This document shows, one piece after another, positions 8,921 through 47,640 of a DNA stretch of 48,943 bases. Made by a program: the position numbers and the translations under genes. Under the pieces are notes generated by a model. The model made no database searches and was not told the origin of the DNA. It saw only the letters and a program-made list of their open reading frames with translations. The stretch is from a virus. Taxonomy: Duplodnaviria; Caudoviricetes. Within the stretch, counting starts at the first letter, position 1, and each line of letters starts with the position of its first letter. The DNA lies in IMG/VR virus record IMGVR_UViG_3300033067_002072, positions 1-48,943 of that record; one strand, given 5' to 3'.

Positions 8921-8949
8921 ATAAGGGGCCGATCGACCCTTTATTATTT
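8920..8949 (+). terminator. imperfect hairpin with T-rich tail (weak terminator)
   Basis: AATAAGGGG...CCCTTTATT inverted repeat after the stop. Confidence 0.45.
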
Positions 8950-8976
8950 GGTTTTCGCCGCCGGAGGCACTATAAT
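8948..8976 (+). promoter_or_regulatory. sigma70-like promoter upstream of nrdJ
   Basis: TTGGTT-17 nt-TATAAT. Confidence 0.45.
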
Positions 8977-9004
8977 TACTTACCAGATTAAATAAAGGGA
9001 AGAG

Positions 9005-11734: not shown

Positions 11735-11744
11735 GTGTATATAT
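11735..11744 (+). promoter_or_regulatory. GTGTATA phage promoter-like motif
   Basis: Just downstream of a terminator; 15 nt before ATG 11750. Confidence 0.65.
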
Positions 11745-13228: not shown

Positions 13229-14307
13229 TGGGTTTTATTAACTTTAGGGCACCGCTAGGAAATTTTGAGATCATTAGACAATCTGAAGGAAACAATGCTA
13301 ATACCATTCTTTCTTCAGCCATTGCTTCTACTGGTCATTATGTTGGGGCAAATTGGATTGCCCCTAAAACTGGCAATATTACTTCTATCGGTGTTTTGCT
13401 AACCGCTTTAAGCGGTTCTTTGCCAACTACAAATATTGTGTTAGAAGGTGTTAATACAAGTAAGGGAGCCGATAATATTGCTGCCGCAACAACTGGTTTA
13501 ATCACTTCTGTTACCAGTGGATTTGTTTGGATTCCCTTTCCTTCAACGCAAGTTAAAGAGGGTTCAGGATATTCTTGTGTTATTCGTTCGACAGGAACCG
13601 TAAGTTCTACTAACTGTGGTTTTTTTGGTTATTCTAACAATCCTTCTTCTGTTAACGCTAATGGTTATTTAAACAATTTTCCTATTCGTTTTGTGGGTTC
13701 TTTAAGTACGCCTATTGGATATTCAATGATTGTTCCTCGTTATAGCGATGGGAGTATTCCTCAAGGATTTTATATTGCAAATACGGGCAATGTTCCTTAT
13801 GGCGGTGCCACCTTTAGTTCTGGGACTTCACTTCCTTTAAAGGGTTTATTGTTTCAAACACCTTTTGAATGTAAACTTTCCTCCTTTTTAATTGCTACGG
13901 CACAAGTAAGTTCACAATCTCATACTGAAGTACGTCTTTATGATTCTGCCAATGCCTTATTATTTCGTCGAGAATTTGCGGCTAATAAAAATTGGACGGG
14001 CAATCAGGGTTGTTTACTTGTAGAACTTGCCAGTGGTATAATCGTAAAGAAAAATACTAATTATCGTTTAATCTTAAATCCTAGCGGTACAGCCGCTTTA
14101 AGTAATTATTTTAATACAATGAATAGTACGGGCGATTTACAAAATTTCTATGGTTTCTCTGGTTGTATGACTGAAGGTTCTGGAACAGGATCAAGTCTTG
14201 CATGGAAAAATTATAATAACAGCACAGATGGTTTTAGAGCGTGGATTGCCATGCCAATATTAAGTGATATTGCTATTGCCGGTCGTAGAAGAGGTACTGG
14301 TGCTTAA
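13228..14307 (+). CDS. putative virion structural/decoration protein (beta-rich)
   Basis: S/T/G/N-rich, low charge; apparent two-fold internal repeat (WIAPKTGNITSIGV / FQTPFECKLSSFLI). Confidence 0.55.
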   Translation: MGFINFRAPLGNFEIIRQSEGNNANTILSSAIASTGHYVGANWIAPKTGNITSIGVLLTALSGSLPTTNIVLEGVNTSKGADNIAAATTGLITSVTSGFVWIPFPSTQVKEGSGYSCVIRSTGTVSSTNCGFFGYSNNPSSVNANGYLNNFPIRFVGSLSTPIGYSMIVPRYSDGSIPQGFYIANTGNVPYGGATFSSGTSLPLKGLLFQTPFECKLSSFLIATAQVSSQSHTEVRLYDSANALLFRREFAANKNWTGNQGCLLVELASGIIVKKNTNYRLILNPSGTAALSNYFNTMNSTGDLQNFYGFSGCMTEGSGTGSSLAWKNYNNSTDGFRAWIAMPILSDIAIAGRRRGTGA

Positions 14308-15054: not shown

Positions 15055-15236
15055 TGGCCGGTAACAGAATAAAATATATACCAAATAACTCTAGGCCCAA
15101 TAGAAGTATTCCTATTTTCTATCAGCCAGTAGAAGCCTCATCTCCACCCGGTGGTGGGGCCGGGGATTTAAGAGGCCCTTCTTTAACAAACCTAAAAGTT
15201 TTAAGACAAGCGACCCATAAAATAGGCAGAAAATAA
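15054..15236 (+). CDS. small basic hypothetical protein
   Basis: TAATG coupling on both sides. Confidence 0.6.
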   Translation: MAGNRIKYIPNNSRPNRSIPIFYQPVEASSPPGGGAGDLRGPSLTNLKVLRQATHKIGRK

Positions 15237-16069
15237 TGAAGAAGATAGGAATAATAATATTTTGTTGTGTTCTATTAGTTTCTTGTAATAAGAAAGGTTT
15301 TATTAAATACGATGTTTTAGATAGTACAAAGCAAATTGAAACATCAAGCAATAAAATTATTGAACAAACACAAACTATCGAAAAAGAAAAACCTGAATTA
15401 AAGCCCCAACTTGATCCAATTGCTGTAGAAGCCCAAAGAATTTTAGAATTTAGTGGTAATATCACTAAAGGATATCAGCAATTTTCTACGGATACTTCTA
15501 CCATTATAGATAATTTACAAAAACAAAATAAGAAATTTGAAGATGTAATTAAAAAACAACAGGGCGAAATCAAAGATTTAAAATCCCAAAAAGATTTATG
15601 GTACGACAGGTGTTTAGCGGCTATAATTATAGCATCAGGATTGGGTGTAGCGGTTTCCCTCGTCTTATTCTTTATGGGTAAACTGCCCAGTTTAACCTTC
15701 TCTTTAGTAGGAATTGCTGTTCTAGCAGGAGCAATTTTTCTAAAGGTCTTACAAGCCTATTTCCTTTATGTAGCAGGTGGATTTGGTCTACTTATTGCTA
15801 TTATCATAGGTTATGTTGCTTTTACTCATAAGAAACAAAGCATTAATAAAGACAAAGGGATTTCGGAAATCGTTAATTCTGTTAATAAAGGAATTGAAGA
15901 AGGGGCGATCGATCCAGCCAAATTTAGTGAAATTGCTAATAAAAACCAAACTCCTAATTTAGGTAAAGCCCTAGTGGATAGAGTTCAAGGAAAGTTAAAT
16001 GAAACAAACTTTAATCGTGTTTTTGGGAAGCGTCGGACAAAGAGAAGTGATTCAAGTAAAGGAAAATAA
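15236..16069 (+). CDS. predicted lipoprotein with coiled coil and three TM helices
   Basis: MKK + hydrophobic + LVSC lipobox; heptad-rich middle; three hydrophobic segments. Confidence 0.75.
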   Translation: MKKIGIIIFCCVLLVSCNKKGFIKYDVLDSTKQIETSSNKIIEQTQTIEKEKPELKPQLDPIAVEAQRILEFSGNITKGYQQFSTDTSTIIDNLQKQNKKFEDVIKKQQGEIKDLKSQKDLWYDRCLAAIIIASGLGVAVSLVLFFMGKLPSLTFSLVGIAVLAGAIFLKVLQAYFLYVAGGFGLLIAIIIGYVAFTHKKQSINKDKGISEIVNSVNKGIEEGAIDPAKFSEIANKNQTPNLGKALVDRVQGKLNETNFNRVFGKRRTKRSDSSKGK

Positions 16070-28948: not shown

Positions 28949-30042
28949 AAATACATTCTTTGAGAGCCTCGACTGCTAATAGTTATGCCGGGTGTGAATG
29001 GCAATACTTTTTATTATATGACGTAGGAATATTAGGACAAAGTGGGCAAAAAGCTGAGTATGGCAATTGCGTGCATCTCGCGGCTGAGCTATTGGCCAAA
29101 GCCAAGAGGGTTCATAGGCTTAAGGGTAAAAGAGGTAAGCCTAAGGGTAAAAGAGTTGACCCCGAGTTTCTATTAAATGTGGCATACAACCGCACAGTTA
29201 AAACTAGTAGATTTGAATGGGATGAAGAAAGTAAGCAATTTTGTCGTAAACAATTTGCTAATATTTTAGCAGTCTCCTTTATTAATCCCCTTAATCTTAA
29301 AGTCCTCCGTACCGAACATCAGTTTGAAATTACGATTAAAAAGCCGGGCTTTTTAATTCAGGGAACCGGAGAATACCTTAAACTACGTGGTACCATTGAT
29401 TTAATCACTGAACAAGATAAGAATACTATTCATATTATTGACTACAAAACTGGTAAATCTACAGATTGGATCACTGGCGAAGATAAAACGCACGAAAAGT
29501 TAAAAACTGATACGCAGTTACGAATGTATGATTTGGCTATAAAGTACTTATATCCCAAATATAAGAATCGAATATTTACCCTATTCTTTACACAAGAATC
29601 CAAACCTGTTACTATCTCCTACGATTCGGATGAATGGATTAAAACGCTAGAAGAATTCAGAGGAATTTTTAAACAAATTCAATCCAACAATAATCCAACT
29701 CGTTTAATAGATATTAAGGTGAGTGATCAGTGGAAATGCAACTATGTTTGCCAGTTTGGTGAATTAGCCGTTAAATTCCAATCTGACAACGGTCAGATTA
29801 TAATCGAAAATTTTAGAAAGAAAAAGGGGTTGGTCATTCCTGAAGAGATTGTAAGAGACAATATTTCTTATAAGAAACTACCCGGCTATCCTGAAACCAT
29901 CTGCCAGAAATACTATAAGAAGTTTAATAAACTGGGCATGGATGAATTTCGTAATGAAATGACCCAACTTACAATTAATGGGAAAGTATCAGCGAGAAAC
30001 GATTACTCAAATCCTAAATTAACCCGATTGGAGATCACTTAA
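28945..30042 (+). CDS. Cas4/RecB-like PD-(D/E)XK exonuclease
   Basis: LRGTIDLI, IIDYKTG, QLRMY; N-terminal Cys plus C-terminal CNYVC suggest an Fe-S staple. Confidence 0.85.
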   Translation: MKIHSLRASTANSYAGCEWQYFLLYDVGILGQSGQKAEYGNCVHLAAELLAKAKRVHRLKGKRGKPKGKRVDPEFLLNVAYNRTVKTSRFEWDEESKQFCRKQFANILAVSFINPLNLKVLRTEHQFEITIKKPGFLIQGTGEYLKLRGTIDLITEQDKNTIHIIDYKTGKSTDWITGEDKTHEKLKTDTQLRMYDLAIKYLYPKYKNRIFTLFFTQESKPVTISYDSDEWIKTLEEFRGIFKQIQSNNNPTRLIDIKVSDQWKCNYVCQFGELAVKFQSDNGQIIIENFRKKKGLVIPEEIVRDNISYKKLPGYPETICQKYYKKFNKLGMDEFRNEMTQLTINGKVSARNDYSNPKLTRLEIT

Positions 30043-31724
30043 TGCTTAATTTTACCCATTATTCTGTAGGATATGGAATAAGTCATATTGATGAATTAGT
30101 TAAAAGGGCGGCAGAACTTAATTTACCCTATCTGACTATCACTGACTTAAATAGTCTTGCTGGCTGCCCAGAGTTTTTAGAAACGGTCAATAAGGTTAAT
30201 GAGAAACGGGAAAATAAGATTGTACCCATATTAGGGGCAACTTTTACAGTAAAACTGTCCGAAGGACATGGACATCTTAGTGCCCTTTGTAAAAATAAAC
30301 AAGGTTGGCATAGTCTATTAAAGATTTTGTCAACAATGCAGGTCGAAAAACAGGAGTTTTTCGAGTTAAAAGATGTTTTGTCGAATCTGACCAATTTGGA
30401 CATAATCCTTGGGGATTTTGAGGGCCGAGCGGCCCTTGCAAAAATATTAGGGGCAAAGGGTATTCCTTTTACGGAAACCAATGTCCAATCCAATTATGTT
30501 CGGGTAGAGGACAAAATTCTTCATCAAGTAGTTTTAAGTGGGCGGTTAGATTGTACTATTCCAGAAATCCCCCAAGTTATTGAAAAACACAAGGAATTTG
30601 CTAAGTTCTTTGGAGAGGACACTTTTGCCCTGACTACATCGGCCAATCTCAACTTATCTGGCTTTTCCCCATTTTCGCTAAAAGCAAAGCCATTTATCCC
30701 AAACTTTTCCCTAGAAGGGCGATCATACGCCCCACCCGAGGCGGCTGAACTCCTTAAGAATTTATGTAGGGACGGCTGGGCATCAAGAAAATTAAACTGG
30801 TTGTGCCGAAACGACCCGGCCCTTAAAGATGTTTATCTGAATAGAATTAAAGAGGAGTTAAAGACCTTTGAAGAGGCCAACTTATCTAGTTATTTTCTTA
30901 TTGTTAAAGACTTAATGAACTATTCTAGGGAGAATGGATATAGTTGTGGGCTTAGAGGTTCTGGCTCAGGTTGTTTAATTGCCTATCTAATAGGTATATC
31001 AGACATTGATCCTATATGGCCCGATAAAACTATTCCTTATGATCCTAATAAATCCCTACTGTTTTCCCGATTCTATAATTCTGCCCGTAATTCTGCTGAA
31101 AATATATCTCTACCAGATTTGGATATTGATGTTTGTCCTTCCTTTAGACAGGCAATGAAGCAATATATTGTAGAGAAATATGGAAGTGATAAAGTTGCTT
31201 CATACATTGTAACTTATGCCCGCTATGATGGTAAGGGTGCCTTTAAGCAAGTGTGCAGGGCACTGGGGACGTTGACACCAGAGGAAGTCAACGACATTAC
31301 AAAGTTCATGATTGATTATGCTAGAATTCAAGATGAACTTGAGGATTTAAAGCAGGAAGATCCCAAATATAATACTTTACGGTATAATTTGGATCACGTT
31401 CTTGCCGTGCAACAACTATATGAGGAATACAAAGAAGAATTTGATCTTGCCGTCCGCATTTCGGACACGATTTATTCTAGAAGCAAACACGCCGCAGGCG
31501 TAGTAATTTCTCCTAACAATTTAAATGAAAATTTTCCAATTTTTATTGAAAAAGACGGTACAAAAATATTAGGATTAGAAATGGAATGGGCAGAGTATGT
31601 TGGGGCACTTAAATATGATCTTTTATGTGTTGCTGCCTATGAAAAGATTGATAAGATTATAGAGATGATTAATACGGGTTCGAACGAGCCTGTAGTGGGA
31701 ATTTTGGAAGAAGATACGGAGTAA
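30042..31724 (+). CDS. dnaE: DNA polymerase III alpha, N-terminal part (PHP, palm, thumb)
   Basis: RGSGSGCLIAYLIGISDIDP, PDLDID, KHAAGVVI, KYDLL: all three catalytic Asp; stops where fingers should begin. Confidence 0.92.
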   Translation: MLNFTHYSVGYGISHIDELVKRAAELNLPYLTITDLNSLAGCPEFLETVNKVNEKRENKIVPILGATFTVKLSEGHGHLSALCKNKQGWHSLLKILSTMQVEKQEFFELKDVLSNLTNLDIILGDFEGRAALAKILGAKGIPFTETNVQSNYVRVEDKILHQVVLSGRLDCTIPEIPQVIEKHKEFAKFFGEDTFALTTSANLNLSGFSPFSLKAKPFIPNFSLEGRSYAPPEAAELLKNLCRDGWASRKLNWLCRNDPALKDVYLNRIKEELKTFEEANLSSYFLIVKDLMNYSRENGYSCGLRGSGSGCLIAYLIGISDIDPIWPDKTIPYDPNKSLLFSRFYNSARNSAENISLPDLDIDVCPSFRQAMKQYIVEKYGSDKVASYIVTYARYDGKGAFKQVCRALGTLTPEEVNDITKFMIDYARIQDELEDLKQEDPKYNTLRYNLDHVLAVQQLYEEYKEEFDLAVRISDTIYSRSKHAAGVVISPNNLNENFPIFIEKDGTKILGLEMEWAEYVGALKYDLLCVAAYEKIDKIIEMINTGSNEPVVGILEEDTE

Positions 31725-34612: not shown

Positions 34613-34980
34613 ATAAGAAAAAGGCAGAATTAACGCACTGGGAAAAGTTCTATGAAATAGATGTTTCTCATCCCAAAGAGATACGCAAATTACTCCGAAA
34701 ATATCTCGGAGAAATTCATAATTTGGGTTGTTGGTTGTTGCCAAGAGGCAGGGAGTTTAGAAATTACGTTAAGAGTAAACCAATCGCCCGTAATATCTTT
34801 AGGACGGAGTCCTATGATGATATCCACTACTATAGAGAGTTTCTTAGGCTGATCGCTAAGAAACAATATAAGAAAGCATATAAGTTATATTGGGATATGG
34901 ATACTTTTCCTCGTGATTTTATCTCAGAACAGTTTAAGACAATTTTAGATTACGCTTGGAACGGCGAACCATATGAATAA
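34609..34980 (+). CDS. hypothetical protein (paralog of 39425-39694)
   Basis: YKKAYKLYWDMDTFPRDFI shared motif. Confidence 0.65.
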   Translation: MNKKKAELTHWEKFYEIDVSHPKEIRKLLRKYLGEIHNLGCWLLPRGREFRNYVKSKPIARNIFRTESYDDIHYYREFLRLIAKKQYKKAYKLYWDMDTFPRDFISEQFKTILDYAWNGEPYE

Positions 34981-36574
34981 ACTTGATATTTCCCAAATTA
35001 ATTACGCTGATACCAAAACTTGGGAATTGATTAAATCGGGGGCGACTAAGAATATTTTCCAGTGCGAAAGTCGTCTTTTGTCTCATTGGCTCAAGAAGAT
35101 TCAACCAAATAATCTTTGGGAACTTTCTATTATTCTAGCTCTGGTAAGGCCGGGTGCATTGAACAGCGGAACCGCCGATGACTATGTTGCCTATAAGAAT
35201 AAGGTTAAAGAATTTCAGCCAATTCATCCTATCGTAGATAGAATCTTAGAAACTACGAATCACTGCTTAGTTTTTCAAGAATCATTGATGCAGATTGGTG
35301 CAAATCTTGCGTGGCCCCATCTTCCTGATAAAGAGAAATCCCTAAAGGTTGATGAACTTCGTAAAGCCGTAGGTAAGAAGAATCAAGAGAAAATTCTTAA
35401 GATTGGTAAGGAATTCGTAGAAGGCTGTTTGACTAATAAAGTTGAGGCGGCGGTTGCCGCCCGCCTCTTTGAGATTATTAAGAATTGTGGGCGATACCTA
35501 TTTAACCTTTCCCACTCATTTGCTTATGGTGTTAAGGCATATGAAAGTGCCTATCTAAAAGCCAACTATCCATTACAATCCCTTGCTGTATACTTAAGTT
35601 ATGCCCAATTTAAACAGGCTCATAAAAAAGAGGGCAAAACCTTTGGTGGAAAGTGGAATGAAATAGAGGAAATTGTTAATGAGGGCCGCAAATATCTTGG
35701 AGTAGAACTCCTCGCCCCCAATATTAATTCTAAAAATGAGAATTTTGCAATAGAGAATGGGGCAATTCGATATGGGCTGGGCCATATTAAGTACTTTGGA
35801 AATAGCATCGACAAAGTAAAGAAACTTCCTCGGATTGATAAATGGCAGCAAGTATTGTTGCTCCTTTGTACTGATAGATTTGGATTTAAACTTAAAGCAA
35901 CTACGGGCGAAGCCCTTATTAAAACGGGTTGTTTTGCCGATACCAAGGTGAGTAGATCAGATTTGCTCACGGTATACACTTTGTGTACAAGCCTAACTGA
36001 AAGAGAAATGGAAAAGTTGGCCGACTTATTAGAAAATAATTCGGACCAACCGATAACATCTTTAAAAGATTTACTTACTGACGTAGTTAGCATAGCCACC
36101 AAGCGAAGAAAAGAAACTTTAGAAGATGAAATTAAACTTCTAAAACTCAACCAATTCGACAATCCCCAATGGGTAGAACAGGTTGAAAAACACTATATGG
36201 GCCTGCCCATTAATACTACCGCTCTTGATAATATCTCTGAACAAGCCGGTTATGGTTGTCAAGACTTACATGATAGTTTACCCCTTTATACCACTCGTCA
36301 GATTCATCTTATTATCGATGATGTAAAGACTACAGTTACTAAGACAGGTAAAAACCCCGGCCAAGAGATGTGTTTTGTAACAGGGCACGATGCTACGGGT
36401 AAGGTTGATCGCTTACCCATTTTCCCTGAATTGTATGCCACCCTAAAAGATGATCTATTTCCCCCACAAATGTTTTGTTTAACGGTACATAAAGGTAAGG
36501 GCGGCTGGTTCGTTAAAGAAGGATATAAACTTGACACCACTAGAGATTCTGGAAAAATGCAATTATCTGATTAA
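34973..36574 (+). CDS. dnaE: DNA polymerase III alpha, C-terminal part (fingers, HhH, OB)
   Basis: IFQCES, ALVRPG, LVFQE, LRKAVGKK, FNLSHSFAY, YLKANYP, IRYGLGHIK, EMCFVTGHDATG. Confidence 0.92.
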   Translation: MNKLDISQINYADTKTWELIKSGATKNIFQCESRLLSHWLKKIQPNNLWELSIILALVRPGALNSGTADDYVAYKNKVKEFQPIHPIVDRILETTNHCLVFQESLMQIGANLAWPHLPDKEKSLKVDELRKAVGKKNQEKILKIGKEFVEGCLTNKVEAAVAARLFEIIKNCGRYLFNLSHSFAYGVKAYESAYLKANYPLQSLAVYLSYAQFKQAHKKEGKTFGGKWNEIEEIVNEGRKYLGVELLAPNINSKNENFAIENGAIRYGLGHIKYFGNSIDKVKKLPRIDKWQQVLLLLCTDRFGFKLKATTGEALIKTGCFADTKVSRSDLLTVYTLCTSLTEREMEKLADLLENNSDQPITSLKDLLTDVVSIATKRRKETLEDEIKLLKLNQFDNPQWVEQVEKHYMGLPINTTALDNISEQAGYGCQDLHDSLPLYTTRQIHLIIDDVKTTVTKTGKNPGQEMCFVTGHDATGKVDRLPIFPELYATLKDDLFPPQMFCLTVHKGKGGWFVKEGYKLDTTRDSGKMQLSD

Positions 36575-36995
36575 ATATTTCTATAATGAAGGAGATAATC
36601 ACGCAATATTACATATTCTATTAGATAAACAGAAAATATATAAGTTTACCTATGAAAACGGGGAGTTTAAAACAAATTATCAAGATATAACTATTAAATG
36701 CCCTAAATATGCTTCGCTTGCTTACCTCTCATTTTTTATACAGGAAATTTGTAAGGAAGAAGAATATCCGGCGTTCCGAATCAAGAAATTATTTAACAAC
36801 AATCCTTCGAACCTGATAAGGTTCTTAGATGTGTCTGAAGAAGAAACTTTGCAAAGTATGTATCTGCAAGATTTATTAGAGGAATATAGTCGTTATGGTT
36901 TACGCAAAAATATTATTGAAAAAGCCACAATGGTAGAAATTACCGATGGGCTATATCCGTTAGTTGGGCACCATCTTGGAATTACAATCTCATGA
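36531..36995 (+). CDS. hypothetical protein
   Basis: TTG start with SD AAGGA. Confidence 0.6.
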   Translation: MTPLEILEKCNYLIKYFYNEGDNHAILHILLDKQKIYKFTYENGEFKTNYQDITIKCPKYASLAYLSFFIQEICKEEEYPAFRIKKLFNNNPSNLIRFLDVSEEETLQSMYLQDLLEEYSRYGLRKNIIEKATMVEITDGLYPLVGHHLGITIS

Positions 36996-37579
36996 TTCTA
37001 GCCCAAATACAAAAGTATGATAGACTCATTAAGAAAGTCGCCAAGCAAACCATTCAAAAATACAAATCCTCTATCTTAGATGAAGAAGATTTATACGCCG
37101 AAGGTTGTTTAGTCTTAGATAAAATTCTGTCAAGTTATAAGGAAGAAAAGGGTTCAAAGGTTAATTACATTATTCATTGCTTACGAAATGAATTTTCTGA
37201 ATTAATAAATAAGCACACTAATAATGTAGCCCTTTCGAAACGTGGAGTCTACTTACTTACTCAATATAGGCTCTTATGTAAAACTAAAAATATTGAAGAT
37301 ATTGCTAAAGAATTGGGCACAACAGAGGGGTACTTAAGAAAACTAATAGGTTTATCGAGTAGAAAAGATCTTGCCCAAGCATATAAAATAGAGAATCTTG
37401 ATTATAATATAGATAAAACCACATTTTTATCAAAAAATGATGAATTTCTCCTGAATTTTTACTTAGGCGGTCATACAATTAAAGAAATCGCTAAAAGATT
37501 AGGGCGATCTGATGAATCAACTCGATTAGAATTAAAGAAGATTTTCAACAAATTGAAGATCTATTGGAAAGAAGTATGA
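36992..37579 (+). CDS. sigma-70 family RNA polymerase sigma factor
   Basis: Region 2 LIKKVA...EEDLYAEG...Y.EEKG; two HTHs (EDIAKELG, TIKEIAKRLGRS). Confidence 0.8.
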   Translation: MILAQIQKYDRLIKKVAKQTIQKYKSSILDEEDLYAEGCLVLDKILSSYKEEKGSKVNYIIHCLRNEFSELINKHTNNVALSKRGVYLLTQYRLLCKTKNIEDIAKELGTTEGYLRKLIGLSSRKDLAQAYKIENLDYNIDKTTFLSKNDEFLLNFYLGGHTIKEIAKRLGRSDESTRLELKKIFNKLKIYWKEV

Positions 37580-39231
37580 GTAAGAAACGTATCCTTTTTG
37601 TAAACGAGTTTTCCGAACTTTCTACTGGTTTTGCTACTTATGGCCATTATGTAATTCCCGAATTATATAAGACGGGCAAATATGAAATTGCTGAGATCGG
37701 TGTTTACGCCAGCAAAGCCCATCCCAAAATTGGCAATGTCCCTTGGAAAGTATATCCTAATGAACCCGATCCAAACAATGTTGAAGAACAAAAGATATAT
37801 GCTCAAAATAAAATTAATCAATTTGGTCTATGGAGATTTAATGAGGCAGCACTTGATTTTAAGCCCGATTTTACGATCTCAATTTCTGACATTTGGATGA
37901 ATGAATGGATTCATCAAACACCCTATCGTAATAATTTTAAACATCTTCAAATGGTTACTTGTGATGGTGAACCTCAAAAAGATGAGTGGTTACGCAGTTA
38001 CAAGAACAACGATGTTTTATTAACGTATTCCTATTGGGCTAAAAATTTAATAGAAAGAGTAAGTAATGGGCGAACAAAAGTACGAGATGTTGCTTCGCCG
38101 GGCACCGATATCAATATTTTTAAACCTAAAGATAAGCAAAAACTGCGGGAGCAATTTGGTGTTAAAGGGGATGTGTTTATCATACAAACGGTGATGCGGA
38201 ATCAGCCCCGTAAACTCTTCCCCGAACTTATGAAGGCGTTTAACGCCTTTTTGGAACTCTGCCGTGCTAACGGTCGTGACGATATCGCCCAAAAAACTTA
38301 TCTTCACCTTCATACGACGAATCCTGATATGGGTTGGGACTTACCCAAGGAAATCCGCAATCACGGATTGGGTCACAAGGTAATTTTTACCTATATGTGT
38401 GACGCTTGTAAAACGTTCTATCCTTCATTCTATCAAGGTGATCGTACTATTTGTCGTCATTGCCATCAATCAAGCCTCCGGCTCCCAAATACAGCCATTG
38501 GCCTAGAACGAGAACAACTGGCTGATATTATGGCAATGCCTGATTTGTATGTCCAATTTTCGACTTGTGAGGGTTGGGGCATGTGCGGTAATGATGCTAA
38601 AGCTTGCGGTGTTCCTACGGCACAAGTAGATTATTCTGGTATGTCAGAACAGGCTCATGCACCCGGCGGCTTACCGATTCCTGTTGCTAAGTTTAATCAA
38701 GAATGTATTACGCAAACCAATCAATTAAGGGCGATTCCAGATAATGAGGCTACAACCCAATTGTTCTACAAATTCTTTACGGCTACGCCGGAATATCGTG
38801 ATAAATTAGGTAAAGAAGCAAGAGATTGGGTAGTAAAACAGTATGCTTGGCCCAATATTGCAAAAATCTGGGAAAATATTATAGATGAGACTCCTATCTT
38901 AGACCGTCGTCAGACTTGGGATGCCCCACCCTATATTATTAAAAATTTGGCTTTGCCCAATCAACAATTATCCAATGCGGACTTTGTCCGCTGGGCATTA
39001 GTGGATGTTCTTCGCAAACCTCGTATGTTCCACGATGTTGGGGGACGATTCGCTCAGATATTAGATCAAGGTTTTGAACCTCAGCAATTAGAAGATGGGC
39101 GAATGATGCATAAGCCATACAATCGAGAGAACTTCGTTCAATTTATAGTAGGACAGATTAATCAGAATAATATGCTAGAATCTATGAGATGTGGGCTAAC
39201 ACAGTCAGCCTCCAAGGTGGTGAAGATCTAA
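37576..39231 (+). CDS. GT-B (GT4-like) glycosyltransferase with CxxC-CxxC insert
   Basis: TGFATY, MRNQPRK, EGWGM...AKACGVP; CDAC...CRHC. Confidence 0.85.
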   Translation: MSKKRILFVNEFSELSTGFATYGHYVIPELYKTGKYEIAEIGVYASKAHPKIGNVPWKVYPNEPDPNNVEEQKIYAQNKINQFGLWRFNEAALDFKPDFTISISDIWMNEWIHQTPYRNNFKHLQMVTCDGEPQKDEWLRSYKNNDVLLTYSYWAKNLIERVSNGRTKVRDVASPGTDINIFKPKDKQKLREQFGVKGDVFIIQTVMRNQPRKLFPELMKAFNAFLELCRANGRDDIAQKTYLHLHTTNPDMGWDLPKEIRNHGLGHKVIFTYMCDACKTFYPSFYQGDRTICRHCHQSSLRLPNTAIGLEREQLADIMAMPDLYVQFSTCEGWGMCGNDAKACGVPTAQVDYSGMSEQAHAPGGLPIPVAKFNQECITQTNQLRAIPDNEATTQLFYKFFTATPEYRDKLGKEARDWVVKQYAWPNIAKIWENIIDETPILDRRQTWDAPPYIIKNLALPNQQLSNADFVRWALVDVLRKPRMFHDVGGRFAQILDQGFEPQQLEDGRMMHKPYNRENFVQFIVGQINQNNMLESMRCGLTQSASKVVKI

Positions 39232-39428
39232 TGGGTGAAACAAAATTAAAGCATTTAGGACGTTTTAAAACCGACAGTATACCTAAAGACATTTATTACG
39301 ACGTAGACAAAAATGAAATATTACTGACTCATTGGAACTATATAAATCCAAGTTGGGAAAGTACCATTATTATTTCTAAAGATTTAGTATTGAAATTGGC
39401 TAAAATGATTGAGAGTAAAGAAATATGA
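39231..39428 (+). CDS. hypothetical protein
   Basis: TAATG coupling. Confidence 0.55.
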   Translation: MGETKLKHLGRFKTDSIPKDIYYDVDKNEILLTHWNYINPSWESTIIISKDLVLKLAKMIESKEI

Positions 39429-39694
39429 GTCTAACGACTAAAAAAGATAAAATTGTAAAAATTGCTCAAACAGAATATAGTAAATTACAGGATTTGTTAG
39501 GTATAGCAAGCAGCAGTAGGAAAATTTCAAAGAAATATTTTTATTGGTGGATAGGTGATATTCAAAGTTTAATGGAATTATATGTTTTAGTATTTAATGA
39601 AGAATGGTATAAAGCTTATAAATTTTCTAGGAATTTAGATTCTGATTGTAGGGAAAAAATTAATCGACAGGTTCATAATTTTCTAGAAAGTTAA
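39425..39694 (+). CDS. hypothetical protein (paralog of 34609-34980)
   Basis: WYKAYKFSRNLDSDCREKI. Confidence 0.6.
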   Translation: MSLTTKKDKIVKIAQTEYSKLQDLLGIASSSRKISKKYFYWWIGDIQSLMELYVLVFNEEWYKAYKFSRNLDSDCREKINRQVHNFLES

Positions 39695-39725
39695 ATATAT
39701 GAATAACATGATGACACCGGATTAA

Positions 39726-39734
39726 GTGTATAAA
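39726..39734 (+). promoter_or_regulatory. GTGTATA phage promoter-like motif
   Basis: Intergenic; 14 nt before SD-less ATG 39740. Confidence 0.6.
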
Positions 39735-39739
39735 ATGTA

Positions 39740-40573
39740 ATGAACAAAACAAAATGGCCGGAAAAAAAAATTTGCGATAGATATCTCAGGGGAGAAGGCA
39801 GTACAACAATTGCTCGTTCGTTAAATACTACCGATGGAACAATATGTAATATCTTGAGACGCAATAAAATAACAATGAGAAAAAGAGGAGAGTCTAACAG
39901 ACTTTATTCCTTAAATGAAAATGCTTTTTCTAAAATTACAGATGAATCAGCTTATTGGGCTGGTTTTCTTATGGCGGATGGGAATATTAGATATAAAGGA
40001 CGCAATCAATATGTTCTTAGTTTAGAAATTGCTTATAAAGATATTGAACATTTAAAACGTTTTCAAAAGTTTTTAAATACTAATAAACCTATTTATGAAA
40101 GAAAGCGTATTATTTGTAATGGTACACAAATACATGTTGTTTCTTTGCAAATTTGTTCAGAAAAAATATATAAAGATTTAATCAGTAATTTTAATGTAAC
40201 AGAAAATAAAAGTTTTAATGCGAAGGCTAATAATATATTAGTTTATAATCGGCACTTTTGGAGAGGAATGATAGATGGGGACGGATGTGTTTGTAACAAA
40301 AAAGGTGGAAAAAATGGTTATTTTAATATTCATTTAATAGGTTCTTTAGATATTTGCAAACAATTTAAAAAATATTTAAAAACAACGGTGGAAATTAAAA
40401 GTAATATTTGTAAAAAAGGCAAAATTTTTTCCATGCACGCTAATGGTCAATACGGAATAAAACTTGGTGAAATTTTGTATAAAGACACGAGTTTATATTT
40501 AGAAAGAAAATACGTTAAATGGTTATCTCGATATGAACAATCCCAAAATAACATACGTCGGTCCATTCTATGA
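39740..40573 (+). CDS. free-standing LAGLIDADG homing endonuclease with N-terminal HTH
   Basis: AYWAGFLMADG, FWRGMIDGDG, YLERKY. Confidence 0.88.
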   Translation: MNKTKWPEKKICDRYLRGEGSTTIARSLNTTDGTICNILRRNKITMRKRGESNRLYSLNENAFSKITDESAYWAGFLMADGNIRYKGRNQYVLSLEIAYKDIEHLKRFQKFLNTNKPIYERKRIICNGTQIHVVSLQICSEKIYKDLISNFNVTENKSFNAKANNILVYNRHFWRGMIDGDGCVCNKKGGKNGYFNIHLIGSLDICKQFKKYLKTTVEIKSNICKKGKIFSMHANGQYGIKLGEILYKDTSLYLERKYVKWLSRYEQSQNNIRRSIL

Positions 40574-41639
40574 TTCTACAGGTTACTGTGATGCTGCTAG
40601 TAAAACTGCATTATGTATCCAAAAAGCTGGATACGCTATACAAGCAAAAACAGTAAAACTTACTGGGCAAAGAGTAGATGCTTATCCAGACATACAGAAA
40701 TTGGAACTTGTCAGGCATAAACCTGACGTAGTCATCCAAAACTACCTTCCACCCTTAATGGTTTACCATGCTGGGGCAAAGAATATTGGTTATTTCTTTT
40801 GTGAAACTTCTCATTTCCGCCCTTCGAATTGGCAATATAACCTTAATTTAATGGATGAAGTTTGGGTTTGCTGTGATCAAAACATAGAGGCGGCTCAGCG
40901 TTCGGGAGTGACTAAACCTATTAAGAAGGTGCCCATTCCTTATGTAAATCCTTATTCATCGGTTGTAGACCGTATGGATTTTGGATTTCCAGAGGAAACT
41001 TTTGTATTCTTTAATGTCGGAGACTTTTCCTATCGTAAGAATATTATGGGGCTTGTTGAAGCATATTTTCTATCTTTCACCAAGTATGATAAGGTTGCCC
41101 TTATTCTAAAGTGCTACTGCGATGGTCAGCCTACGGCAAAATCCGTGGAGATAATTAAACATGAGATTAATAATCTTAAACGCCAATTAAAGAAACATAA
41201 TGTAGATATTTATCCTCCTGTTTATCTTGTTGCCGAATACTTAGACGAAGTAGAACTTCAGAAATTTCACAATGCCGGAGATTGTTTTATTTCTTTAGAA
41301 CGCGGAGCGGCATGGAATCTCCCTTGCTATCAAGCAATGGGTGAGGGCAAGCCTGTTATAGTGGCAGGGGGTGGTGGGCAAACAGAATACCTTATGGGTG
41401 AAAAGGAAGGGGTAACACTATTAGATGGGGAAGTCGAATTTGTTAAGAATATGGCCCAGTGCCCCTATCCCGGTTTATATACTTGCCATGAGAAATGGTT
41501 TAATCCTTCAATTCAACATGCAGTATTTGCAATGCAAAATGCGTACCGCACAGGTAAGATTCGGTATAACCGGACAACTTGGTTGTCCAAATGGGATTTA
41601 GCGGGCTGTGCCGCCAAATTCAAGGAGGTTTTAGGTTGA
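40533..41639 (+). CDS. GT-B (GT4-like) glycosyltransferase
   Basis: DSTGY, DEVWV, RKN, DCFISLERGAAWNLPCYQAMGEGKPVI. Confidence 0.85.
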   Translation: MNNPKITYVGPFYDSTGYCDAASKTALCIQKAGYAIQAKTVKLTGQRVDAYPDIQKLELVRHKPDVVIQNYLPPLMVYHAGAKNIGYFFCETSHFRPSNWQYNLNLMDEVWVCCDQNIEAAQRSGVTKPIKKVPIPYVNPYSSVVDRMDFGFPEETFVFFNVGDFSYRKNIMGLVEAYFLSFTKYDKVALILKCYCDGQPTAKSVEIIKHEINNLKRQLKKHNVDIYPPVYLVAEYLDEVELQKFHNAGDCFISLERGAAWNLPCYQAMGEGKPVIVAGGGGQTEYLMGEKEGVTLLDGEVEFVKNMAQCPYPGLYTCHEKWFNPSIQHAVFAMQNAYRTGKIRYNRTTWLSKWDLAGCAAKFKEVLG

Positions 41640-42091
41640 TTATTCCTATAATTACTAAAACCGGCTACAAAGGTGATTTAATTATTGATGATGAAGATTG
41701 GGATAAGATCAAACATTTTAAATTAAGCACAAATAAAGGTTATGCTAGAGGTTATACTAAACAAAAAACATATTTTATACATAGAATTGTTTTAAATGCT
41801 CCTAAAAATATGCAAGTTGATCACATCAATAATAATAGATTAGATAATAAAAAATCAAATTTACGTTTAGTTAATAATAAACAAAATAATGAAAATAGAA
41901 AAGGTGCTTATAGCACTAGTAAAACTGGTATTAGAGGAGTTTGTTGGTATAAAAGCCATAAAAAATGGCGAGCAGTAATCATGTCTAATTATAAACAAGT
42001 ATACAATAAACTATTTGATTCTCAAGAAGAAGCAGTTATTGCTGTGGTGAACAAAAGAAAAGAATTGGGGTTTTTAGATGCTAACTCGTGA
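41636..42091 (+). CDS. HNH homing endonuclease with AP2 domain
   Basis: IHRIVL...VDHINNNRLDNKKSNLR; SKTGIRGV.W....KKWRA; TTG start, SD AAGGAGG. Confidence 0.9.
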   Translation: MIIPIITKTGYKGDLIIDDEDWDKIKHFKLSTNKGYARGYTKQKTYFIHRIVLNAPKNMQVDHINNNRLDNKKSNLRLVNNKQNNENRKGAYSTSKTGIRGVCWYKSHKKWRAVIMSNYKQVYNKLFDSQEEAVIAVVNKRKELGFLDANS

Positions 42092-43079
42092 ATTATCGGT
42101 AATGCGTAGATTGTTAGAAAAACCTAATAGAAAGTTAAATATACTAACCTCAGCAATTCATGAGGGTTTTTCAGGCATGTTAGCTCATGTTCCACACAAT
42201 TTTTACATGTTAGCAGGAGCAATCCAAGGTGGACCCCCATTCAAAAAGTGGGATTATCATACACGCCCCATGCCTGCTAACCACTACATGTTTAATATTC
42301 CCGCCGAACATACAAAGGCGGATATAGAATTTGATCTTGTTTTATGCCAAAACAGGTCCATGTATTATCCCTTTTTTAACGCCGTTGCAGAAAAACTAAA
42401 TCTTCCCCTAATCGTTTTAGACCATACAGAACCGCCGCCGGGGGTCAGTCAGCAACAGTTAGATGGGATTAAACAATGGATTGGGCATACTAACGTCTAC
42501 ATTACCGAACACAATAGAGCGACTTGGGGAAATCCTAACGGCATCATAATTCCTCATGGAATTGACACCGAAGTCTTTAAGGGATATACAGGTGCTCTCC
42601 CAAGGGGCGTAACAATGGTCAATCAATTCCCAAGCCGCGATGTGTTCTGCGGGTGGGGTCTATATCAGAGCCTCTTAAAACAAATCCAATGCGATCTGGT
42701 TGGGGATAATCCGGGCCTCTCAAAATCTATTAAAGATCCCGTGGCGATAGCCAGTACTTTAGGACAATATAGATATTACCTTAATACTTCCCAACTTAGC
42801 CCAGTCCCCCTATCGGTCCTAGAAGCAATGGCGATTGGCCTTCCTATAGTCACTACGGCTAAGCAGGAATTACCTAAGATTATTAAAAATGGTTATAATG
42901 GGTACATTAGTAATGATCCAGAGGAACTTGTTAAGGCTTGTCAGAAATTAGTAGCAGAACCAGAATTAGCAAAAGAATTAGGGGCGAATGCCCGTAAAAC
43001 AATAGAAGAGAAGTTCTCTTTACAGAACTTCGTGGAAAATTGGAATAATGTGTTCTATAATACCTTGGAGAAAATATGA
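42078..43079 (+). CDS. GT4 glycosyltransferase
   Basis: IPHGID, PLSVLEAMAIGLPIVTT, IIKNGYNG, LGANARK. Confidence 0.9.
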   Translation: MLTRELSVMRRLLEKPNRKLNILTSAIHEGFSGMLAHVPHNFYMLAGAIQGGPPFKKWDYHTRPMPANHYMFNIPAEHTKADIEFDLVLCQNRSMYYPFFNAVAEKLNLPLIVLDHTEPPPGVSQQQLDGIKQWIGHTNVYITEHNRATWGNPNGIIIPHGIDTEVFKGYTGALPRGVTMVNQFPSRDVFCGWGLYQSLLKQIQCDLVGDNPGLSKSIKDPVAIASTLGQYRYYLNTSQLSPVPLSVLEAMAIGLPIVTTAKQELPKIIKNGYNGYISNDPEELVKACQKLVAEPELAKELGANARKTIEEKFSLQNFVENWNNVFYNTLEKI

Positions 43080-43531
43080 AATTAAACTTTCAGTGCGGGC
43101 AGGACTTTATAACTGGATGGAAAAACTATGACATGAATCCAGTGAATGCTGAAATTCAGCAATTTGATTTTAGAAACTTTCAACAATTAGGAATAAAGGA
43201 TAATACAGTCGAGGAAATCAGACTTAATACTTCCCTAGAACTCGTCCACTTTTCCCAAATAGGGAACTTGTTCACTCAATTTTATAACGCCCTACAGGTC
43301 GGAGGTAGTCTATACCTCCAAGGTATTCATGCCGAACAACTTGCCAATACCTTAGCCTATGGCAATATATCTATTGAGGAATTTAATCAAGTAGTTTATG
43401 GGCATCCCAAGTTACCCCACCGATCCCTATATACATTGAACCTAACAGAAAATATTATGGGGCAGATAGGGTTTAAGATTAAGCAAAAGGGGATTATAGG
43501 ACAAGCCTTCTATATAAGGATTACGAAGTGA
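43076..43531 (+). CDS. degenerate methyltransferase-fold protein
   Basis: MKLNFQCG...GWKNYD...LELV...LQVGG echoes the KLNLGCG...LEH...LKPGG pattern. Confidence 0.6.
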   Translation: MKLNFQCGQDFITGWKNYDMNPVNAEIQQFDFRNFQQLGIKDNTVEEIRLNTSLELVHFSQIGNLFTQFYNALQVGGSLYLQGIHAEQLANTLAYGNISIEEFNQVVYGHPKLPHRSLYTLNLTENIMGQIGFKIKQKGIIGQAFYIRITK

Positions 43532-44229
43532 TTACGTCGGTAATAACAAATTTTAATCAGGGTAAGTTTATTGAATCTGCACTTAATAGTTTACTTGGGC
43601 AAATAATGTTGCCTTCTGAGATTATAGTTGTCGATGATAAATCGACAGATAACTCAGTAGAATTAATAGAAAAATGTATAGGAAAATATACGGGGCCGAT
43701 CCCTATTCACTTTGTGAAAAGGGAAACAAATGGTAAGCCGGGCGGGGCGAGGAACTCTGCCATTAAAATCGCTAAGGGCGATATTATTACCTTTCTTGAT
43801 ATTGATGATTACTACTACAAAGATAAGATTCAAAAATCAGTTGAGGTTCTGGAAAAGAACCCTGAAGTAGGATTAGTTTATTCCGACTATGACAAGATGG
43901 ATCTTCGATCGGGTAAAACGATGCGGGAATTTAAGCACCCCTATGATTTTGCCCTTCTTTGGCAAACTTGTATTGTGAGTACTAATTCCGTAATAAGGGC
44001 AGAAGTATTTAAAGAAGGTGTGGTCGGCCTATTTAATGAAAAATACCTAGTGGCTGAGGACTATGAAATGTGGCTTCGTATCGCTCGTAAATATATCCTT
44101 TGGCACATCCCCGAACCCCTATTTATGTACCGCTTACACGGTGAGAACCTAACTATTAAGTACGGATATACAATGAATAAAGTAGTAGAAGAAATTAAAA
44201 GGAACTATATTAATGAGCATTCAACTTAA
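43528..44229 (+). CDS. GT2 glycosyltransferase
   Basis: EIIVVDDKSTD, ARN, FLDIDD, EDYEMWLR. Confidence 0.92.
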   Translation: MITSVITNFNQGKFIESALNSLLGQIMLPSEIIVVDDKSTDNSVELIEKCIGKYTGPIPIHFVKRETNGKPGGARNSAIKIAKGDIITFLDIDDYYYKDKIQKSVEVLEKNPEVGLVYSDYDKMDLRSGKTMREFKHPYDFALLWQTCIVSTNSVIRAEVFKEGVVGLFNEKYLVAEDYEMWLRIARKYILWHIPEPLFMYRLHGENLTIKYGYTMNKVVEEIKRNYINEHST

Positions 44230-45914: not shown

Positions 45915-45947
45915 AATAAAGGGGCCAAACGGCCCCTTATTTATTTT
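45913..45947. terminator. bidirectional rho-independent terminator between convergent modules
   Basis: A-tract, AAGGGGCC-AAAC-GGCCCCTT, T-tract. Confidence 0.88.
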
Positions 45948-46512
45948 GGGGTCTTACTACGGCAATCCATCCAGTTATATTATGGCCGCTATCAAACGTT
46001 GGTTGAGCCTCAACATTGATTTCCACAACTCCCCCGTTGGAGTGGAGCCAACCGTAGGAACAGATAAAGTTTCGTTTTTCCTTAACGGCTGTGTCCCATT
46101 CTGCAATAACTCGTTCTCTATCTTCGTGGGCGACAACATTAACCCAGTTTCTTCCGAGGAAATCTTCGGATGATCTATTGAGTAATTGGCAAGCGGCTGA
46201 ATTGACATAAATACATTCACCTTCTACGTTACTTTGCCATTCCGCAATTTCTAACGCCGCAATTAAACTTTTGCTGCGTGCTTCTGCTTTGGCAAGTCTA
46301 TAATCTATATTCACTATTTTATCATAAAGACTCTTTCCGCCGTTAGGACCAAGTAAATATAATATTTGTTCAATCTTGTTGATATTGTTAAGTACTTTAG
46401 TTAAAGGTTTGATGACTTTAGATTTAAAGAATAAAACAACAGGTACAAGTGCTAAAATGCCCGTACCAATCTTTACGATTAAATCAAAGTTGCTTATAAG
46501 TATATCTAGCAT
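45937..46512 (-). CDS. membrane protein: N-terminal TM + NGGxSLxD coiled coil + PAS domain
   Basis: IGTGILALVPVVLFF; PNGGKSLYDKI; GECIYVNSAACQLLNRSSEDFLGRNWVNVVAHEDRERV PAS signature. Confidence 0.85.
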   Translation of the reverse strand: MLDILISNFDLIVKIGTGILALVPVVLFFKSKVIKPLTKVLNNINKIEQILYLLGPNGGKSLYDKIVNIDYRLAKAEARSKSLIAALEIAEWQSNVEGECIYVNSAACQLLNRSSEDFLGRNWVNVVAHEDRERVIAEWDTAVKEKRNFICSYGWLHSNGGVVEINVEAQPTFDSGHNITGWIAVVRPQNK

Positions 46513-46529
46513 AATTACGCACCACAGTA

Positions 46530-46546
46530 ATATACACTATATACAC
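46530..46546 (-). promoter_or_regulatory. tandem GTGTATAT motifs upstream of the PAS gene
   Basis: Minus strand reads GTGTATATAGTGTATATT in the intergenic gap. Confidence 0.6.
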
Positions 46547-46565: not shown

Positions 46566-47267
46566 TTATGTTCGAATAATAGTAGAATATTTAATTCTAA
46601 ACTCTTCAAATTGTAATCGCGTATTATACTTTTGCCCGTATTCAGAATGAAATTTTTTATGACACCCAAAACACAAAGTGATACCATTATTTAAATCATA
46701 TCTTAGATGTAAATTACAATGAAAAGATTCTAGATGATGAGCAACAATTCTTTGTTTAGATTCACAAATAACACAAGTTCTTTTGTCTCTATCTTTTACA
46801 CCTGTTTTCCAATCAAATTCTTTTTGACAAAATTTGCGTTCTCGTTTTTTCTCACCAAGTTTACCATATTTCAATCTATTACTGTTAGACAATTCTAATA
46901 AACAGCCACAACTTAAAACCCTATGGTGTTTTAATAAAGAACCTCGTCCTACCCAAGAATTACCGCAATCACATTTGGCTTCCCATAATCGAGTACCACC
47001 TTTGTGATTGGGGGCGGGTTTCAAAGCAATCAATTTGCCAGAACGTATACCTTTTAAATCATTCCTTAAATACCGACAATCACCAAAACCACAAGAGGTT
47101 GTTAATCCTTGTCGTAACGAATTTTGTTTCACACTAGTTATTTTACCACATTCGCACCAACATAACCACTTTCTATCCAAATCTGTCTTAAAATCTTCAA
47201 AAATCACTAAAAGTTTTCCAAATCTTTGTCCTAATAAATTAATTTTTTTATGTTCGGGCCATCCCAT
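46566..47267 (-). CDS. HNH endonuclease with two N-terminal Cys-rich DNA-binding repeats
   Basis: LLGQRFGKL...WLCWCECG...SCG twice; CVIC...AHHL...NGITLCFGCHKKFH. Confidence 0.88.
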   Translation of the reverse strand: MGWPEHKKINLLGQRFGKLLVIFEDFKTDLDRKWLCWCECGKITSVKQNSLRQGLTTSCGFGDCRYLRNDLKGIRSGKLIALKPAPNHKGGTRLWEAKCDCGNSWVGRGSLLKHHRVLSCGCLLELSNSNRLKYGKLGEKKRERKFCQKEFDWKTGVKDRDKRTCVICESKQRIVAHHLESFHCNLHLRYDLNNGITLCFGCHKKFHSEYGQKYNTRLQFEEFRIKYSTIIRT

Positions 47268-47268
47268 A

Positions 47269-47640
47269 TTATTTACCTTCTATAGTTAAATGAGTCCATT
47301 TGTCACATTTTCCTGTTTGAGTTTTACAAATTAACAAACAATTACAAGGAGCGTTGTTTTTATTAGGATCGGGCCTACTACATTGCGAAGCACTAGTCAT
47401 CTTCCCATCTTTCTTGGTAGAAAATTCACAATTACGACAAATATCCCTATTCTTTTTAATATCCTCATCGCTATAAGATTTATCTCCGGTAATGCATTTA
47501 GCGATACCCATCGCCCCCTCTTTTAACCATTCCACCTTATTTGGTTGCTGTTTAAATGCTTCCAAAAGATTATGGGCAACATGAGTTGCTCCACCCTGAA
47601 ACATTGGTGTTGGTTGCCCTTTATTACAATTACATCCCAT
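47269..47640 (-). CDS. small Cys-rich protein (MGCNCNK...)
   Basis: SD AAGGAG; 10 Cys in 123 aa. Confidence 0.75.
   Translation of the reverse strand: MGCNCNKGQPTPMFQGGATHVAHNLLEAFKQQPNKVEWLKEGAMGIAKCITGDKSYSDEDIKKNRDICRNCEFSTKKDGKMTSASQCSRPDPNKNNAPCNCLLICKTQTGKCDKWTHLTIEGK

Follow-up and report, generated by a model that had tools for sequence, protein, structure and literature searches.

The window, by which we mean the whole 48,943-nt stretch analysed here, is a linear virus record of IMG/VR (IMGVR_UViG_3300033067_002072; Duplodnaviria, Caudoviricetes) with an estimated completeness of 31%. Its last minus-strand gene encodes a protein that joins a predicted transmembrane (TM) helix and a PNGG turn motif to a PAS domain (TM-NGG-PAS gene, Table 1). 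The reading frame ends at a two-way terminator-like hairpin that separates the convergent gene blocks, in agreement with the initial annotation, which had placed the gene at the end of the minus-strand module. The Cys-rich genes beyond the neighbouring endonuclease gene have counterparts at positions 8926-9375 of the related locus L005 and, as a similar-looking pair, at 7754-7990 of L001, and gave no family match. A host is hinted at only by an Atlas row of lead level (score 0.86), which was matched to the neighbouring Cys-rich protein and has a cluster that is mostly Planctomycetota.

Table 1. Features at and around the TM-NGG-PAS gene, in window coordinates.
Feature	Position	Strand	Basis or remark
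Two-way terminator-like hairpin at the end of the TM-NGG-PAS gene	45919..45938	.	Sequence
TM-NGG-PAS gene, 191 aa	45937..46512	-	ORF, Pfam, homologues, model; pN/pS 0.124/0.581 versus L002
Complete PAS domain, residues 88-189, without C-terminal DIT motif or output domain	45946..46251	-	Pfam, model, fold match
Helix 2 (linker), residues 62-87; length varies by whole heptads in the family	46252..46329	-	Spacing, model
Turn motif PNGGKSLYD at residues 56-64, which marks the phrog_9869 / mu1/6 gp52 module	46321..46347	-	Alignment, profiles
Amphipathic helix 1, residues 30-54, predicted cytoplasmic	46351..46425	-	Model; a/d positions 0.88 hydrophobic in the best register
Predicted single TM helix, residues 11-29, N-out/C-in	46426..46482	-	Hydrophobicity and positive-inside rule
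GTGTATAT, proximal copy; one change in L002	46530..46537	-	Motif scan
GTGTATAT, distal copy; genome-wide promoter-like motif; intact in L002	46539..46546	-	Motif scan
HNH endonuclease gene, next one upstream; L005 lacks it at this position	46566..47267	-	Pfam
Small Cys-rich gene (47269-47640) and long Cys-rich gene cut by the contig end	47269..48943	-	Homologues precede the TM-NGG-PAS gene in L005

The single hydrophobic segment of the protein has a mean Kyte-Doolittle value of 2.4, with no Lys or Arg before it and four after it, and in 47 of 51 family members more of these residues lie behind the TM helix than ahead of it. The one N-terminal TM helix of the initial annotation is therefore predicted here as well. 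The annotation had further described a coiled coil containing PNGGKSLYDKI; the motif is present at residues 56-66, but the coiled coil is in fact two helices broken at the PNGG turn. A structure predicted from a 56-row alignment (pLDDT 92.6) has helices at residues 9-54 and 62-87, the turn at the motif, and then the strands of the PAS domain. Pfam matches cover residues 83-188 (PF00989, E 2.3e-13; PF08447, E 7e-13), and a score of 50.6 bits against a curated cut-off of 22.6, together with the full PAS fold, places the domain in the Pfam PAS clan. In structure searches made mainly with residues 86-191, the top match was a PAS domain (Z 15.8, rmsd 1.9 over 104 residues). No domain was found C-terminal of the PAS domain, and a check for a sensor histidine kinase gave neither HisKA/HATPase domains nor a DIT-linked output helix, so that the earlier description of a complete PAS domain lacking any kinase or output domain stands. 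Homodimer prediction for the full protein with the same 56-row alignment scored 0.05 against a mark of 0.42, which speaks neither for nor against binding. In a comparison with the 77%-identical gene of L002, dN/dS came to approximately 0.08 in the membrane part, 0.04 in the stretch of motif and linker (residues 55-87; dN 0.026, dS 0.605) and 0.12 in the PAS domain; all three parts are under purifying selection.

The two GTGTATAT copies reported upstream of the gene are there, though the motif is not its own. Six exact copies occur in the window against 1.57 expected, a number reached in 1 of 100 shuffles, and copies with one mismatch show no excess (43 versus 47.9 expected). The remaining four exact copies lie on the plus strand, 14-43 nt ahead of other ATG starts, and precede, among others, a homing endonuclease gene and an operon at 11735; one GTGTATAA copy likewise lies ahead of the ATG start of a second homing endonuclease gene. 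With four of the six exact copies preceding other genes, a gene-specific tandem promoter was ruled out, and we infer from the motif's distribution that GTGTATAT would be a genome-wide, probably late, promoter element. Upstream of the gene, 34 of 36 bases are kept in L002; since the proximal copy is changed there, the exact tandem is not conserved, and even a partial copy of the motif was found upstream in just 3 of 49 other family loci. A phage sigma-70-like factor encoded at 36992-37579 (+) of the window is a candidate reader of the GTGTATA(T/A) motif.

Proteins of this layout form a large family. A protein search returned nine relatives of 190-221 aa, all built like the window protein, and contig scans added L001/L004, L002, L003 and L005, and later L049 and L051. 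Motif scans that allowed for gaps gave at least 241 matches in at least 240 loci, at least 51 of them with a PAS domain. The PAS-fused set used below consists of 52 sampled loci, namely 50 clusters (loci merged at 70% identity) plus L444 and L445; by extrapolation, the family in IMG/VR likely comprises a few hundred stretches. Its six best Atlas cluster rows are 99-100% viral, with clusters of up to 1142 members. Two scans of GTDB genomes yielded no member or prophage copy from which a host could be read off. Searches of cultured phages with tblastn gave no full-length family match: the window protein returned nothing meaningful, and a query with L439 found only a PAS-less gene of Streptomyces phage mu1/6.

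These data bear on the origin of the gene, for which the initial annotation had allowed a truncated host kinase fragment. Apart from the PAS match itself, nothing points that way. The NGG module is found in none of 73 long PAS proteins (lengths of 336-419 aa lay outside the search), the architecture is shared by 52 loci, and all members with an intact end stop soon after the PAS domain. The GTDB scans, the viral make-up of the best Atlas clusters and the purifying selection argue against a fragment as well, leaving it with a negligible probability. TM-NGG-PAS proteins are, on the evidence of their sequences, a phage family and not a kinase stump.

The N-terminal half ties the family to lysis cassettes. 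The N-terminal region of all five members tested matches phrog_9869 (E 4e-5 to 2e-3). For the window protein the direct match is weak (E 0.002), and family profiles raise it to 28-45 bits, by which it belongs to this group. The mu1/6 protein gp52 (DQ372923) matches phrog_9869 with an E of 2e-32 and the N-terminal profile of our family with 45 bits, and has a homologous module of one TM helix, a helix, PN(G/S)GxSLxD and a further helix; it differs in being only 91 aa long, without a PAS domain. Its gene, annotated as 'unknown', is the third of a cassette, after an annotated endolysin and an annotated holin, and our literature search found no functional study of it. Shorter PAS-less homologues did not appear in a protein search with residues 1-85 of the family protein P0009, but DNA scans did find them. 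We sampled the neighbourhoods of six such loci. An HMM-supported lysin (Amidase_2 or CHAP) lies near the PAS-less gene in L050, L054 and L059, and a related unannotated gene of 141-143 aa together with a small hydrophobic gene is found nearby in L052, L058 and L060. The N-terminal 85 residues are thus a one-TM plus NGG module that, in its form without PAS, is a lysis-cassette gene, which supports the earlier statement that TM plus NGG proteins recur in such cassettes. The name 'holin' fared less well: the protein matched no holin family (best phrog_15431, E 0.36; no Pfam holin), and in a viral fold search 'Class III holin' appeared weakly, at rank 42 with an E of 0.05. As a separate observation, the gene of 141-143 aa (phrog_32486 where scanned) occupies the endolysin slot beside the PAS-less NGG genes of L052, L053, L058 and L060, and probably encodes an unannotated lysin.

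Among the PAS-fused loci, two cases are compact. In L115 the gene is followed by a lysozyme, an Rz-like and an Rz1-like gene, and no other holin candidate was seen; L109/L229 have a similar order, but with a 42-codon hydrophobic ORF in between. In both cases the PAS-fused gene stands in the position of a holin, ahead of lysozyme and spanins, and the lysozymes of L115 and L109 carry a weakly hydrophobic, SAR-like N-terminal stretch. A lysin or spanin is also found near L049, L051, L194, L198, L203, L332, L360, L439 and L444, the neighbour of L447 looks by eye like an M15 peptidase, and a small hydrophobic gene, again read by eye, adjoins about 13 further loci. Lysin-linked members stand in six places of a quick tree. 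As a control we used 35 chance-match loci with 150 neighbouring ORFs. When the rule of the control (PHROG 'lysis', E<=1e-5) is applied, 8 of 52 family loci have a lysin or spanin no more than three genes away, compared with 1 of 35 control loci; a wider rule adds L051 (Hydrolase_2), L194 (NlpC/P60) and L203 (tail-lysozyme PHROG), giving 11 of 52. The one-sided Fisher p is 0.059 under the strict rule, which misses 0.05, and 0.013 under the wider one, in both cases for loci that are not independent. Neighbouring ORFs were picked by a crude greedy rule, with 136 ORFs in the main scan, most of them taken from a list of 238, and others scanned separately; the neighbours of L247, L252 and L273 were left out of the lysis-gene scan.

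In the other 41 of 52 loci, no HMM-supported lysis gene was found within three genes, and several lie beside ribonucleotide reductase or unrelated genes. The window belongs to a clade of nine rows in a quick tree (window, L001, L003, L005, P0004-P0007 and P0009; SH-aLRT 100). Pfam scans recognised no lysin, holin or spanin among 82 ORFs of the window, a contig estimated to be 31% complete, nor was one recognised among the scanned ORFs of L001 or the genes closest to the TM-NGG-PAS gene in L003 and L005. The L001 gene is one of a series of genes for small membrane proteins that follows the tail genes, which is where a lysis cassette is usually found. A lysis role in the phage of the window would hence be carried over from the wider family, as it is not visible in the gene's own neighbourhood. 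The expectation that homologues would be found next to endolysins holds for several separate lineages, enough to set aside the contrary case named at the outset, that they never associate with lysis or late genes, but most PAS-fused loci, the window's included, have no recognisable lysin nearby.

Such neighbourhoods raise the question of whether the protein serves not lysis but virion assembly or DNA packaging, as an anchor or checkpoint at the inner membrane where its PAS domain would bind a component of the head, portal or terminase. Genes for terminase, portal or head do adjoin about 12 of the 52 loci (L003, L193, L386, L436, L437, L443, L320, L340, L440, L192, L199 and L439), and the clade of the window, without lysins nearby, would suit this role. 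The neighbour nevertheless varies between lineages with no constant partner, the gene takes the holin position in L115 and L109, and, as a recent preprint describes, genes for packaging and tail can have lysis genes in their midst (bioRxiv 10.64898/2026.08.27.747656). We regard this role as unlikely.

The PAS domain is held at a fixed phase to the membrane module. From the Asp of the motif to the conserved PAS Gly we counted 34 residues in 25 loci, 35 in five, 41 in 17, 42 in four and 38 in one. The gapped scans admitted every spacing from 34 to 43, so the gap between the classes was not imposed; since all members but one (51 of 52) have a spacing of 34/35 or 41/42, phase-locked coupling is implied. 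The long class requires eight parsimony changes on a quick tree of the PAS domain alone, at least two of them forced by strong branches. A PAS domain in constant register with the membrane module is compatible with signal transfer along a coiled coil, and equally with any plain parallel dimer, whether it signals or not. PAS domains usually join downstream output by a D[IVL][TS] motif. Near the PAS end this motif is present in 2 of 57 family rows versus 120 of 147 cellular PAS domains; because the PAS domain ends the protein and is without this exit motif, any output must run N-terminally. Flavin-binding PAS domains of the LOV type are marked by the cysteine motif NCRxLQ, which is found in none of 56 rows, and LOV-type light sensing was rejected. 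As regards haem- or FAD-binding sensors of the FixL, Aer and NifL types, the PAS alignment shows no invariant His, and only G98, G120 and W123 reach 90% conservation. With neither a LOV motif nor conservation beyond these three positions, no ligand is indicated.

The PAS domain might accordingly do no sensing at all, and serve within a lysis accessory protein as a ligand-free dimerisation or docking module that sets an oligomerisation threshold or binds a partner protein. Its sequence varies (mean column identity 25%) and contains no cofactor motif, the evidence from lysis cassettes serves this reading just as well, and VqmA is reported to need its PAS domains in order to dimerise (PMC8284805). 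On the other side, PAS-less versions far outnumber fused ones: a codon-specific motif scan gave 120 matches, of which 97 have a hydrophobic segment upstream and eight a PAS domain after the motif. Since the PAS-less form is so much commoner, the module works without PAS. The repeated whole-heptad changes also suit signal transmission, short of proving it. We consider a ligand-free role rather improbable, somewhat less so than an assembly anchor, and below the sensing regulator set out further on.

The initial annotation had offered a decoy as its second reading, in which the protein would heterodimerise with PAS histidine kinases or cyclases of the host and silence them. A lone PAS domain on a membrane anchor would suit such a role, the PAS half is matched by long PAS proteins, and there is a published report of phage peptides interfering with a cyclase of the host (PMC8085984). 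Identity of the PAS half to cellular long PAS proteins is, however, mostly 20-35%, with no close donor, and a single architecture persists in phages that differ widely in GC content and in the neighbourhood of the gene. The genes also lie mostly in late modules, and the kinase-linked DIT motif is lost. The decoy thus finds little support, and we hold it to be very unlikely.

Several known systems share parts of this design. The T4 holin T is a one-TM lysis protein with a C-terminal globular periplasmic domain, which reads superinfection through the antiholin RI; common to both is one TM helix with a C-terminal globular regulatory domain, here a PAS domain that is predicted to be cytoplasmic. 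LysF1b/LysA2b of mycobacteriophages (DUF2746, PF10874) are one-TM lysis regulators that work with a two-TM partner and may lie apart from the lysin gene (PMC13056207; bioRxiv 10.64898/2026.08.27.747656). LysF1b and the window protein have in common the single N-terminal TM helix with predicted N-out/C-in topology, the basic residues behind it and a long cytoplasmic helix, and D29 gp30, of the LysF1b type, has a similar-looking turn followed by LRD. LysF1b differs in having no sensor domain and in its hosts. Membership in DUF2746 was rejected, with PF10874 in none of five records and no significant match to D29 gp30 (0.8-4.7 bits). The releasin gp25 of phage Mu (DUF2730, PF10805) is a type I membrane protein with a cytoplasmic domain that serves a SAR endolysin in a holin-less cassette (PMC9239132). 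A pairing of the TM-NGG-PAS gene with a SAR-like lysozyme is seen in L115 and probably in L109, and was not seen in the window. Mu gp25 differs in being a 99-aa, anionic protein of Mu-like phages only, without a PAS domain; DUF2730 membership was likewise rejected, as PF10805 gave no match. By analogy, the window protein would work like LysF1b or the Mu releasin, but it belongs to neither family.

In vibriophage VP882, lysis is under the control of a phage-encoded PAS domain that responds to a signal of the host, that of VqmA(Phage); this protein is a soluble transcription factor without a membrane module, which acts on the lysis-lysogeny switch via qtip, before the lytic programme (PMC8284805). 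Gene 108 of the cultured Cellulophaga phage phi19:1 (KC821607; L454 6203-6925), which came up in the fold search, lies after holin-like genes, about 1.5 kb before a lysozyme, and encodes a TM helix, a helix and a degenerate PAS-like domain. It was rejected as a family member, having no NGG motif and no profile match, and is an analogue at most.

Burst size and phage fitness follow from the moment of lysis, which in the systems studied depends on holin accumulation or, in T4-type lysis inhibition, on an outside signal. Taken together, we see about even chances that the window protein regulates lysis from a membrane anchor, its PAS domain, for which a cytoplasmic location is predicted, reading a host cue and tuning burst time. 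A signal inside the infected cell would be read by the lone PAS domain, and a parallel coiled-coil oligomer would pass a twist or a change in association to the membrane module. The module would then shift between off and on, and, judging from its likeness in topology to LysF1b and the Mu releasin, could activate a two-TM partner or free a membrane-held endolysin; in some phages the membrane module may itself be the holin and form the lesion. Whether the family as a whole is a widespread class of phage lysis timers with a built-in sensor, the PAS domain binding a host metabolite, a gas or a redox carrier and the protein sometimes replacing the holin, is a more tentative proposal, to which we give slightly less than an even chance.

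If this holds, a lysis-cassette membrane protein with its own cytoplasmic PAS domain would provide a direct route from host physiology to burst time, and late in infection phages would fit the timing and size of their burst to the condition of the host. One-TM lysis regulators are already known; what would be new is a sensor PAS domain on a lysis-type membrane module. A full-text literature search, whose coverage excluded most subscription papers, found no paper on PAS fused to a phage lysis membrane protein. The family, with at least 52 loci and virus-dominated Atlas clusters, is large, compact cassettes such as that of L115 make it testable in a laboratory strain, and a lysis switch under the control of a ligand would be of practical use as a tool.

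Further features of the window were noted in passing. The gene at 15236-16069 (+) closes the operon whose start follows the GTGTATAT copy at 11735. Its 277-aa product carries a lipoprotein-like signal (LVSC), has a middle part resembling a coiled coil and ends in hydrophobic helices. The product could be a one-piece spanin-like protein; it had no family match (best Rz-like PHROG, E 0.74), and its homology to membrane and lipoprotein genes near the TM-NGG-PAS gene in L001 and L003 is weak or absent. DNA polymerase III alpha is split between 30042-31724 (PHP and NTPase) and 34973-36574 (finger and HhH), both on the plus strand and about 3 kb apart, with several genes between. A class II ribonucleotide reductase (9005-11416, +) contains an internal stretch at about residues 355-510 that looks intein-like by eye, and at 37564-44229 (+) four glycosyltransferase genes are interrupted by LAGLIDADG and HNH-AP2 homing endonucleases. 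In L005, the product of 12609-13790 (-), inside a sugar-modification gene cluster, resembles by eye a RuBisCO large chain (KPK and FIKEDE motifs).
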